This document shows positions 51,197-52,895 of a DNA stretch of 64,000 nucleotides, in pieces. The position numbers and the translations under genes were made by a program. Numbering within the stretch: position 1 is the first letter of the stretch; each line of letters starts with the position of its first letter. The notes under the pieces are model-generated. The model was given only the letters and a program-made list of their open reading frames with translations, was not told the origin of the DNA and did no database searches. The stretch lies in contig JAFGQU010000023.1 of the NCBI GenBank assembly GCA_016935525.1, positions 897 to 64,896 of the forward strand, read 5' to 3'. This stretch comes from Candidatus Omnitrophota bacterium. GTDB taxonomy: Bacteria > Omnitrophota > Gorgyraeia > Duberdicusellales > 4484-171.

Positions 51197-51418
51197 ATGG
51201 AGAAAGACATTCGGGTAAATTACGCGAAACGTTTGCGGGCACTCCGTAAAAAACACGGGTACACTCAGCAGAAGCTTGCTGAACGCGCCAACATAGAATA
51301 CAAACATATTCAACGGCTGGAAAGTAAAAATCCCTGCGACGTGAAACTCAGCACTCTGGGAAAAATCGCCAAAGCCTTCAAAATCCCTCTTGCCAAATTA
51401 CTTGACTTTGACGACTAA
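51197..51418 (+). CDS. XRE-family helix-turn-helix transcriptional regulator
   Basis: YTQQKLAERANIEYKHIQRLE HTH. Confidence 0.75.
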   Translation: MEKDIRVNYAKRLRALRKKHGYTQQKLAERANIEYKHIQRLESKNPCDVKLSTLGKIAKAFKIPLAKLLDFDD

Positions 51419-51430
51419 CCTCCATCTAAC

Positions 51431-52178
51431 CATATCACACCTCGTAGGTGTGATATGCGGTTAAAACCATTTAATCAAAAAGAAAATCTTTTATCTTCGC
51501 TAATTGACGCTGATAAGAGATCCTTCCTTCTACAAACTGGCGATATCTTGTCGGCTTGATTGCCAATAAATCCTGATACTGGCAGATCTTCTCTTTCTGA
51601 AATTTACGGAAAACATATTCTCGATAAGAAGAAGCAGACCAATCTTCTGGATTATTGATAAATCCAGCAGTGACCGGATTAAGATGAACATAGCGAGTCA
51701 GATGCAATAATTGTTCGTCACTCTCTACAAGCACCCTTTTAAACCTTCCTTCCCACAACGGCCCTTTTCGTTTATATTTAGTGTTGAAATACTTAGAATA
51801 GCTATTTAGTATCTTACCCATAAATGCTGAGATACCATGTTCTTTTAATTGTTTGAGAATAAAATGCAAGTGAGTCGGCATAATACAGTAAGCAATAATA
51901 TTTACAATTTTCTCTTCGGGATTAGTTGACTCGATCCCCCCTACAAGGCTACTTTTCTGTCGCGTAAACCGATCTCTATAAGAAAACCTTATATTGATAC
52001 TATTCTGATAATATAAAATCAATCCTTCTATACGCATATAATCACGCAGATTGTTAAATATCCTAAAACCAGCAATGCTTTTTGTAAAAACGTGATATAC
52101 GCCCTCATTCACTAAAGACATATTTACTCCTTTCCTTTTCCCTCCCCTATATCACACCTACGAGGTGTGATATAGGGG
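51431..52178 (-). mobile_element. IS200/IS605-like or RAYT element: HUH Y1 transposase gene bracketed by 27 bp and 35 bp palindromic hairpins (CATATCACACCTCGTAGGTGTGATATG; CCCCTATATCACACCTACGAGGTGTGATATAGGGG)
   Basis: Hairpins read directly, 14 nt and 22 nt from the gene ends; shared 25 bp core. Confidence 0.65.
51471..52121 (-). CDS. IS200-like / REP-associated tyrosine transposase (HUH Y1 family)
   Basis: HUH motif CIMPTHLHFIL and catalytic Tyr region GPLWEGRFKRVLV..LTRYVHLNPV; AAGGAG RBS. Confidence 0.7.
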   Translation of the reverse strand: MSLVNEGVYHVFTKSIAGFRIFNNLRDYMRIEGLILYYQNSINIRFSYRDRFTRQKSSLVGGIESTNPEEKIVNIIAYCIMPTHLHFILKQLKEHGISAFMGKILNSYSKYFNTKYKRKGPLWEGRFKRVLVESDEQLLHLTRYVHLNPVTAGFINNPEDWSASSYREYVFRKFQKEKICQYQDLLAIKPTRYRQFVEGRISYQRQLAKIKDFLFD

Positions 52179-52187
52179 GAATAACGG

Positions 52188-52895
52188 TCAGAGTAAGCCG
52201 CGGTCAATAAAGCTATAATACACATCGTCGCCGATAATGATGTGGTCTAATACTTTTATCTGTAATGCGTCTCCGGCTTTTGTTAATGCCGCGGTGAAAT
52301 CCCGGTCCTCTTCGCTGGGCTGAGGATTTCCGGAAGGGTGGTTATGAACACAAATAACAGCAACAGCAAAGTATTCAATGGCCTTCTGAAAGATCTCACG
52401 CAATATCGGCTGGACATGGTTCACCGTTCCTTCGGTAGCCTCGATTATTTCAATCACCCGGTTCCGGCTATCAAGAAGTATTATTTTAAATACTTCCTTT
52501 TTTAAATCCCGCAGACGAGGCATCAATAACCGGGAGATATCTTTTGAGGATTTTATCTGAGGCCGATCTTTGTTTTTCCCGGCAATAAACCGCCGGGATA
52601 TCTCTAACGCCGCTCTTATCCGGGTGATCTTTGCTTTCCCCAGCCCTTTGACCGCCTGCCAACGCGAAAAATCGATATGCGCCATATTACGAAATCCCTG
52701 AAATTCCTGCATGATCCGACGAGCCAGGTCCAATGCGCTCACCCCTTTTGTCCCATTTCCCAGAAGGATTGCTAACAACTCCGCATCAGAAAGAGTATGT
52801 TCTCCATACTTTAACAAGCGTTCACGTGGACGGTCATCGTCAGCCCACGATTTTATCCCGGCTCCATACATTTTTCTTATTTTTTCTCTTTTCAT
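52188..52895 (-). CDS. radC: RadC-like JAB/MPN domain protein
   Basis: HNHPSGNPQPSEED JAMM motif, HhH N-terminus. Confidence 0.85.
   Translation of the reverse strand: MKREKIRKMYGAGIKSWADDDRPRERLLKYGEHTLSDAELLAILLGNGTKGVSALDLARRIMQEFQGFRNMAHIDFSRWQAVKGLGKAKITRIRAALEISRRFIAGKNKDRPQIKSSKDISRLLMPRLRDLKKEVFKIILLDSRNRVIEIIEATEGTVNHVQPILREIFQKAIEYFAVAVICVHNHPSGNPQPSEEDRDFTAALTKAGDALQIKVLDHIIIGDDVYYSFIDRGLL

Follow-up and report, generated by a model that had tools for sequence, protein, structure and literature searches.

A probable RAYT/TIRYT-like Y1 gene resident between two cognate hairpins at a conserved chromosomal site in an Omnitrophota bacterium

A short gene for a predicted Y1-type single-strand DNA (ssDNA) endonuclease, tightly enclosed by two nearly identical palindromes, raises the question of whether it is an active insertion sequence (IS), the mobilizer of a repeat family, or a settled resident of the chromosome. 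Such a unit of ∼750 bp lies on the minus strand at positions 51427..52178 of a 64,000-nt stretch (the window) from a Candidatus Omnitrophota bacterium (GenBank assembly GCA_016935525.1, contig JAFGQU010000023.1, positions 897 to 64,896). An initial annotation had described it either as a REP-RAYT-REP arrangement, in which REP stands for repetitive extragenic palindrome, or as an IS200 element with left-end (LE) and right-end (RE) hairpins, and had placed it in mobile or accessory DNA. Our analysis indicated that the gene is probably a single-copy, chromosomally resident member of the RAYT/TIRYT branch of HUH-Y1 enzymes (TnpA_Y1 class 2, nearest to subclass 2.1), associated with two cognate hairpins.

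The open reading frame (ORF; 51471..52121, minus strand) encodes a protein of 216 amino acids (aa), which Pfam, NCBIfam, and PDB comparisons of sequence and fold predicted to be an HUH/Y1 ssDNA endonuclease of RAYT/TIRYT-like type. The HUH motif and catalytic tyrosine noticed in the initial annotation could both be read from the minus strand as H84-L-H86 (nucleotides 51864-51872) and Y144-V-H-L-N-P (nucleotides 51675-51692, including N148). Residues H84, H86, Y144, and N148 did not vary among the homologues of two alignments (18 and 60 sequences), and the Pfam check proposed in that annotation was positive, with a match to Y1_Tnp (PF01797) at an E value of 1.4e-8 and 35.3 bits (cutoff, 23). 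Using Foldseek with an AlphaFold (AF2) model of the protein (pLDDT 86, pTM 0.84), the best hit was Escherichia coli TnpA_REP (4er8; E=1.2e-7), and the transposases of ISDra2 and IS608 came next (2xm3 and 2vjv; E ∼3e-4). The same E. coli structure was the sole significant PDB match by sequence. These results show that the protein has a Y1 fold with an intact active site. Among the NCBIfam models, REP_Tyr_transpos (RAYT, NF047646) scored highest at 66.6 bits, and the IS200 model (NF033573) reached only 13 bits against a cutoff of 55. The tyrosine signature was Y---NP (YVHLNP in the window, Y[VI]HLNP family-wide) as opposed to the Y---Q of IS200, which is the published criterion for class 2 (RAYT) enzymes (PMC6006769). 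Sequence signature and model scores thus favored a RAYT-like over an IS200-like protein. Residues 40-72 formed a variable insert, and no C-terminal helix-turn-helix (HTH; Bac_DnaA_C, HTH_23, or HTH_28) was detected in a Pfam scan.

Both palindromes of the initial annotation, with their shared 25-nt core, were found close to the gene ends. The downstream (3') hairpin at 51431-51457 is a perfect 27-nt palindrome with a 12-bp stem, CATATCACACCT, and the loop CGT on the plus strand. The upstream (5') hairpin at 52144..52178 is a perfect 35-nt palindrome with a 16-bp stem, CCCCTATATCACACCT, and the loop ACG on the plus strand. Only 13 nt separate the stop codon from the downstream hairpin and 22 nt the upstream hairpin from the ATG. 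The 25-nt cores (51432-51456 and 52149-52173) are 100% reverse complements of each other, including the loop, and thus stand in inverted orientation. They belong to the two longest perfect hairpins of the window; their pattern occurred twice, compared to 0.00 expected occurrences in shuffled sequences, and predicted folding as ssDNA yielded -12.5 and -17.2 kcal/mol (z ∼ -6 versus shuffles). At both hairpins the GT[AG]G foot was absent, the feet being CCCC/GGGG and TAACC/GGTTA. The latter is imperfect and extends the downstream hairpin to 51427..51463 (foot arms at 51427-51431 and 51459-51463). Likewise, GGGGWSAS was absent from both ends of the unit, where the closest sequence, GGGGAGGG, did not fit the pattern. 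No further hairpin copy was present in the window, even with a 13-nt apex pattern. Because only two flanking copies occur in these 64 kb, the hairpin cannot be called repetitive in this genome, and the idea of REPs or of bacterial interspersed mosaic elements (BIMEs) was not borne out. Neither an Rfam family, a T-run or terminator, nor a promoter was detected at the two hairpins, which suggests that they act at the DNA rather than the RNA level.

The initial annotation had held that hairpins unique to this locus would speak against its reading. They are indeed unique within the window, which is not decisive, since hairpins of the same type flank homologues across phyla and also occur as solo copies. 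We examined 80 metagenomic loci encoding Y1 homologues, 67 of which were testable, for matched pairs of perfect stems of ≥7 bp, located ≤170 nt from both gene ends and sharing the same apical 7-mer and loop length. Such pairs were found at 30 of the 67 loci, compared to 1 of 244 controls with positions shifted by 1.4-3 kb. The apex of these hairpins was conserved as CACC[T/C]-nnn-[A/G]GGTG: in a profile of 99 unique flanking hairpins, pairs 2-5 toward the loop (C-A-C-C) were C:G in 75%, A:T in 92%, C:G in 92%, and C:G in 75%, respectively, and the closing pair was T:A or C:G. Positions 6-10 were filled by several compensated Watson-Crick types and were 66-97% paired. A fixed apex above a covarying lower stem implies recognition of the apex by its sequence and of the lower stem by its structure. 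Sense-strand mismatches (4 G-T versus 7 A-C) displayed no G-T excess, although these numbers are too small to state more than the lack of an RNA-like bias. An AACC/GGTT(A) foot was found near ∼35% of the family hairpins, compared to ∼7% in the background. In the window and at many further loci (of L020-L058), TAACC...GGTTA frames the hairpins 3-10 nt beyond the perfect stem, as a candidate cleavage or guide motif.

Scanning of GTDB representative genomes for TATCACACCT-N3-AGGTGTGATA revealed 18 loci in Microgenomates of the candidate phyla radiation (CPR; Daviesbacteria, WWE3, Blackburnbacteria, Beckwithbacteria, and Curtissbacteria), in metagenome-assembled genomes (MAGs) labeled "uncultured Gammaproteobacteria," and in one Clostridiales genome. 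At 4 of these loci, all from CPR or "Gammaproteobacteria" genomes, the hairpin was present on both sides of a homologue with 35-41% identity to the window protein; the remaining loci were solo hairpins, mostly intergenic. Two exact TATCACACCT...AGGTGTGATA hairpins were located inside CPR ORFs of 318 and 1014 aa (L001, 2210-2232, and L002, 4238-4260), comparable to published intragenic REPs. Among genomes with the exact hairpin, the copy number ranged from 1 to 5. At the metagenomic loci L047, L049, L052, and L056, hairpins were seen as doublets, in clusters, or dispersed, with 6 copies within 5 kb in L047. Two paralogues with 63% identity (L105, 9979-10696, and L106, 9950-10720) are located 63 kb apart on one 172-kb contig among housekeeping genes (MurJ-Y1-UvrC-SecA and MFS-Y1). 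Their hairpins differ (GGTGACCC.ccg versus AATCACACC.tacgc), and no extra copies were found around them (2 x 20 kb). Each paralogue having its own hairpin is the known RAYT rule. Loop orientation was also considered as a functional signal and was dropped, as the flanking pairs were direct in 19 cases, inverted in 13, and otherwise arranged in 1, and neither side had a preferred loop. A perfectly palindromic stem looks the same on both strands, which fits this free mixture of direct and inverted loops.

Pairs of family-type hairpins, 600-770 bp apart, were also seen to enclose non-Y1 ORFs (L010, 1693-2319; L014, 2883-3605; L032, 6870-7658): a Radical_SAM-like fragment, a small DUF5678 protein together with a 110-aa ORF, and a 228-aa repetitive coiled-coil protein. 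These pairs may be nonautonomous, hairpin-bounded cassettes. A Pfam search of the enclosed ORFs, which returned the Radical_SAM fragment, DUF5678, and coiled coil, was uninformative.

To which of the known systems is the unit closest? The specific protein family comprised ∼176 clusters at 50% identity (E≤1e-30), nearly all of 205-230 aa, and >2000 clusters at 90% identity, of which the named ones were mostly from Omnitrophota, in addition to Scalindua and Tritonobacter. In plasmid and phage collections, only matches to the core domain were found and no full-length relative. The motifs of the family, [T/N]H[LYFI]H, LWEGRFK or IFQGKFK, Y[VI]HLNP, and an SSY tail motif, agree with the alternative signatures tabulated for TnpA_Y1 subclass 2.1 (NH[VYF]H, W[EQ] or FQ, YIELNP or Y[IV]HLNP, and a proximal SS tail; PMC6006769), which corresponds to RAYT Group 1 (Bertels et al. 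2017, PMC5581495) and to TIRYT/TIRtron (Di Nocera et al. 2013, PMC3733652). The residue preceding the HUH motif is T instead of N in the Omnitrophota clade (THLH); the corresponding motifs of the CPR clade are NH[YFI]H and FQ. Further similarities to TIRYTs are the size (∼215-240 aa), the low copy number, and the inverted repeats flanking the gene, some published terminal inverted repeats (TIRs) being self-complementary. A canonical TIRYT from an Iodobacter plasmid (L107, NZ_CP025783.1; NHVH, WE, YIELNP, SSY) was 43% identical to the window protein over core residues 73-167. Its 26-nt TIRs (970-995 and 1815-1840) contain GGGGTCAG, fitting GGGGWSAS. Outside these TIRs, two identical 19-nt palindromes, GTGTAGCAAGTTGCTACAC, were present at 877-895 and 2030-2048. 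In contrast to TIRYTs, the window unit has short perfect hairpins with a CACC/GGTG apex instead of long GGGGWSAS TIRs, and its protein differs by the T before HUH, the insert at residues 40-72, and the undetected C-terminal HTH. Moreover, Omnitrophota, CPR, and Scalindua were not among the taxa sampled in the TIRYT surveys. From these sequence features, the gene appears to belong to an uncharacterized Omnitrophota/CPR clade of RAYT/TIRYT-like genes.

With E. coli TnpA_REP (RAYT Group 2, subclass 2.2), the unit shares, besides fold and Y---NP signature, the layout of a single-copy, vertically persistent gene between inverted cognate hairpins (REPtron). However, the window hairpins are perfect stems with 3-nt loops and are nonrepetitive in 64 kb, unlike the bulged REPs with their GTAG foot, and the window protein exceeds TnpA_REP by 50 aa and has additional helices at its N and C termini. 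Similarly to IS200/IS605 TnpA (IS608 and ISDra2), the window protein has the HUH/Y1 fold, subterminal hairpins at both ends of its unit, and a presumed ssDNA chemistry; all other comparisons, including the identical end hairpins, the single-copy, syntenic occurrence, and the lack of tnpB, set the two apart. The unit works like a REPtron or TIRtron, and of the IS200/IS605 criteria only the fold applies. In line with class 2 RAYTs, it exhibited Y---NP, cognate flanking palindromes that differ between paralogues, a single copy in 64 kb, and vertical persistence. RAYTs have been described as single-copy, vertically inherited genes with a housekeeping-like distribution (Bertels 2017, PMC5581495). 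Of the two alternatives in the initial annotation, the HUH/Y1 identity, the REPtron-like layout, and the RAYT-like character therefore stood, and IS200 did not.

The unit fills nearly the whole gap between two convergent genes, an XRE regulator (HTH_3; 51197-51418, plus strand) and radC (52188-52895, minus strand), with the upstream hairpin lying 9 nt past the radC stop codon. Its G+C content is 36-38%, compared to 45-48% in the flanking genes (window, 51300-52200). XRE HTH, RadC, PIN-PhoH, and Macro neighbors were confirmed by Pfam, but their interpretation as mobile or accessory surroundings was not supported by synteny. The two best database matches to the window protein (P0002, 73% identity, and P0003, 60%) were both encoded in the order radC-Y1-XRE(-), and longer P0003 contigs continued into genes for a response regulator, Macro, and Exo_endo_phos. 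RadC was 95% (P0002) and 71% (P0003) identical to that of the window, and the other neighbors 52-88%. The radC-XRE site was occupied by the unit in L099, L100, and L101. In L099 and L100, the hairpins were at the same positions and retained the TCACACCT apex, and the lower stems were changed by compensating substitutions (the window has CCCCTATA, L099 a 27-bp stem, and L100 CTCATCA or CCTC). The loop of the upstream hairpin (window, 52160-52162) is flipped relative to L100 (CGT versus ACG) with the stem apex unchanged, and loop flipping seems to be frequent and unconstrained. In two other Omnitrophota with RadC 64-65% identical (L104 and L102), radC and XRE are directly convergent, 57 or 203 bp apart, and these gaps contain neither a Y1 gene nor such a hairpin. 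Given the presence of the unit at this site in the window and in L099 and L100, and its absence there from L102 and L104, the hairpin-gene-hairpin block must have entered this gap or, elsewhere, left it.

The ratio of nonsynonymous to synonymous divergence (dN/dS) of the Y1 gene was 0.09 versus L099 and 0.18 versus L100, demonstrating purifying selection. Whether or not the unit is present, related Omnitrophota share the syntenic arrangement of radC, XRE, and the genes for the response regulator, Macro, and Exo_endo_phos, so that the flanking genes are conserved chromosomal backbone and not accessory DNA. Within this backbone, the unit was retained at radC-XRE while RadC diverged to 71% identity. 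The shared context including hairpins, the low dN/dS, and the empty sites in more distant relatives together indicate an old, stably inherited insertion rather than an active IS or a REP array. A general linkage between radC and Y1 genes was rejected: tblastn of the window RadC, XRE, Macro, PhoH, response regulator, and endonuclease/exonuclease/phosphatase (EEP) proteins against 98 homologue loci revealed no synteny, and the context is common to the closest orthologues only. In another Omnitrophota locus (L103, 3088-3930), a family member lies directly upstream of radC, with CCTTTGGCAAC-type hairpins and a third copy 60 nt further, an arrangement which we take as coincidence or a local hot spot.

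Several observations weigh against a resident, low-copy RAYT/TIRYT-type unit. The protein remains under the NCBIfam RAYT cutoff (66.6 versus 80 bits), and in the 4er8 alignment E100, H101, and R104, by which E. coli TnpA_REP reads GTAG, align to R129, V130, and E133. Because these residues are replaced, the details of recognition must differ from those of E. coli TnpA_REP. Copy counts for this genome cover the 64 kb of the window, and hairpins may exist elsewhere in the genome; other genomes had 1 to 6 hairpin copies in the DNA examined. Cleavage and rejoining by the enzyme are inferred by analogy, with no cleavage site mappable from sequence alone. Finally, an abrupt change in divergence was found in comparison with L099 (1-1719): nucleotide identity was ∼94-96% from 53200 down to 52224 (radC dS, 0.21) and dropped to ∼75-80% from 52223 on, a stretch comprising the final 35 nt of radC, the hairpin, and the complete Y1 gene (dS, ∼1.6). 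Such a breakpoint, located ∼35 nt into radC from its 3' end, points to mosaicism through recombination or to an exchange of the cassette for a diverged allele. Given a dS of ∼1.6 in the Y1 gene next to 0.21 in the adjacent radC, simple vertical descent of the cassette is not the whole story. A search with XRE for the second divergence boundary in the L099 organism yielded no further contig. The L099 contig, 1.7 kb in length, stops exactly inside the downstream hairpin (1690-1719; …CTTATATCACACC), possibly because the palindrome, a repeat, or strain heterogeneity interrupted the assembly.

How do other explanations account for these data? An active, autonomous IS of the IS200/IS605 type, with the hairpins as LE and RE subterminal structures and transposition by a peel-and-paste ssDNA route, would be compatible with the Y1 fold, the hairpin at each end, the presence/absence polymorphism at radC-XRE, the lowered G+C content, and the tight fit between two convergent genes. 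However, the same palindrome occurs at both ends in place of distinct LE and RE structures, there is no tnpB among the window neighbors, and the signature and the low IS200 model score point away from such elements. Only one Y1 gene and one hairpin pair are present in the 64 kb, the database protein clusters of the gene have 1 member from 1 contig, and plasmids and phages provided no full-length relative. The maintenance of one locus across lineages with RadC only 71% identical, at a dN/dS of 0.09-0.18, is likewise at odds with an active IS, and we consider this explanation quite improbable. A canonical REP/RAYT (REPIN) system, in which the hairpins belong to a high-copy REP family of this genome and the gene is its domesticated mobilizer, agrees better with the best model and structure matches, all of which are RAYT, with the REPtron-like layout of inverted hairpins, and with the doublets, clusters, and dispersed copies near homologues elsewhere, as well as the solo intergenic copies in CPR MAGs. 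Against it stand the two flanking copies as the only ones in 64 kb, which also holds for the 13-nt apex pattern, the missing 5' GT[AG]G foot together with the replaced GTAG-reading residues, the 1 to 5 copies per exact-hairpin genome among GTDB representatives, and the RAYT score below cutoff. Such a system therefore seems unlikely in its canonical form.

The palindromes might also be unrelated to Y1 and represent duplex operators of the adjacent Cro/C1-type XRE repressor, or RNA stabilizer or terminator hairpins. Perfect dyad symmetries beside an HTH_3 gene, one in the Y1 5' leader and one 3' of Y1, would suit either role, and the arm TATCAC resembles a lambda operator half-site. However, the hairpins track Y1 in the 4 CPR/"Gammaproteobacteria" loci and the 80 metagenomic loci without a nearby XRE homologue, and the XRE orthologues at the empty L102 and L104 sites have no such palindrome. 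No T-run past either stem, no Rfam family, and no bias of G-U over A-C was found. With hairpins that follow Y1 without XRE and are missing at XRE-bearing empty sites, this explanation was rejected as hardly credible.

For a resident RAYT/TIRYT-type gene with its two cognate hairpins, a mechanism can be proposed by analogy to TnpA_REP and the IS608/ISDra2 TnpA proteins. The enzyme would bind the hairpin extruded on ssDNA and read its conserved apex. It would then cut and rejoin ssDNA near the hairpin foot via a 5'-phosphotyrosyl intermediate at Tyr144, with a metal held by the HUH motif, and the AACC/GGTT(A) foot might serve as a cleavage or guide element. The same chemistry may once have placed the hairpin-gene-hairpin unit between radC and XRE, and in other genomes it would scatter solo, doublet, or cargo-flanking hairpin copies. 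In this genome, the unit would now resemble a domesticated or long-persistent resident rather than a multiplying insertion sequence. A far-reaching extension of this mechanism, which we regard as very unlikely, is that the clade, previously undescribed and found in Omnitrophota, CPR/Patescibacteria, Scalindua, and others, uses the CACC-loop-GGTG apex as a portable recombination site and that hairpin pairs delimit exchangeable cassettes in an integron-like ssDNA-hairpin system. If so, the Y1 gene would be one cassette and the unrelated ORFs in L010, L014, and L032 others, and the jump in synonymous divergence versus L099 would reflect cassette replacement catalyzed in trans.

Domesticated Y1 enzymes of the RAYT type are widespread, and nearly all study of them has been in Proteobacteria. 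Two points of modest novelty emerge from this locus: a subclass 2.1-like clade has hairpins, where Quentin et al. 2018 found no REP-like hairpins for subclass 2.1 (PMC6006769), and the hairpin apex is conserved across phyla. The clade offers a hairpin that is short, perfect, and easily synthesized, with a conserved apex and a lower stem that merely covaries. Since copy number is low, protein and substrate can be paired unambiguously, and one chromosomal site is available in both its occupied and its empty state. For genome annotation, this gene should not be used to flag a region as mobile or accessory.

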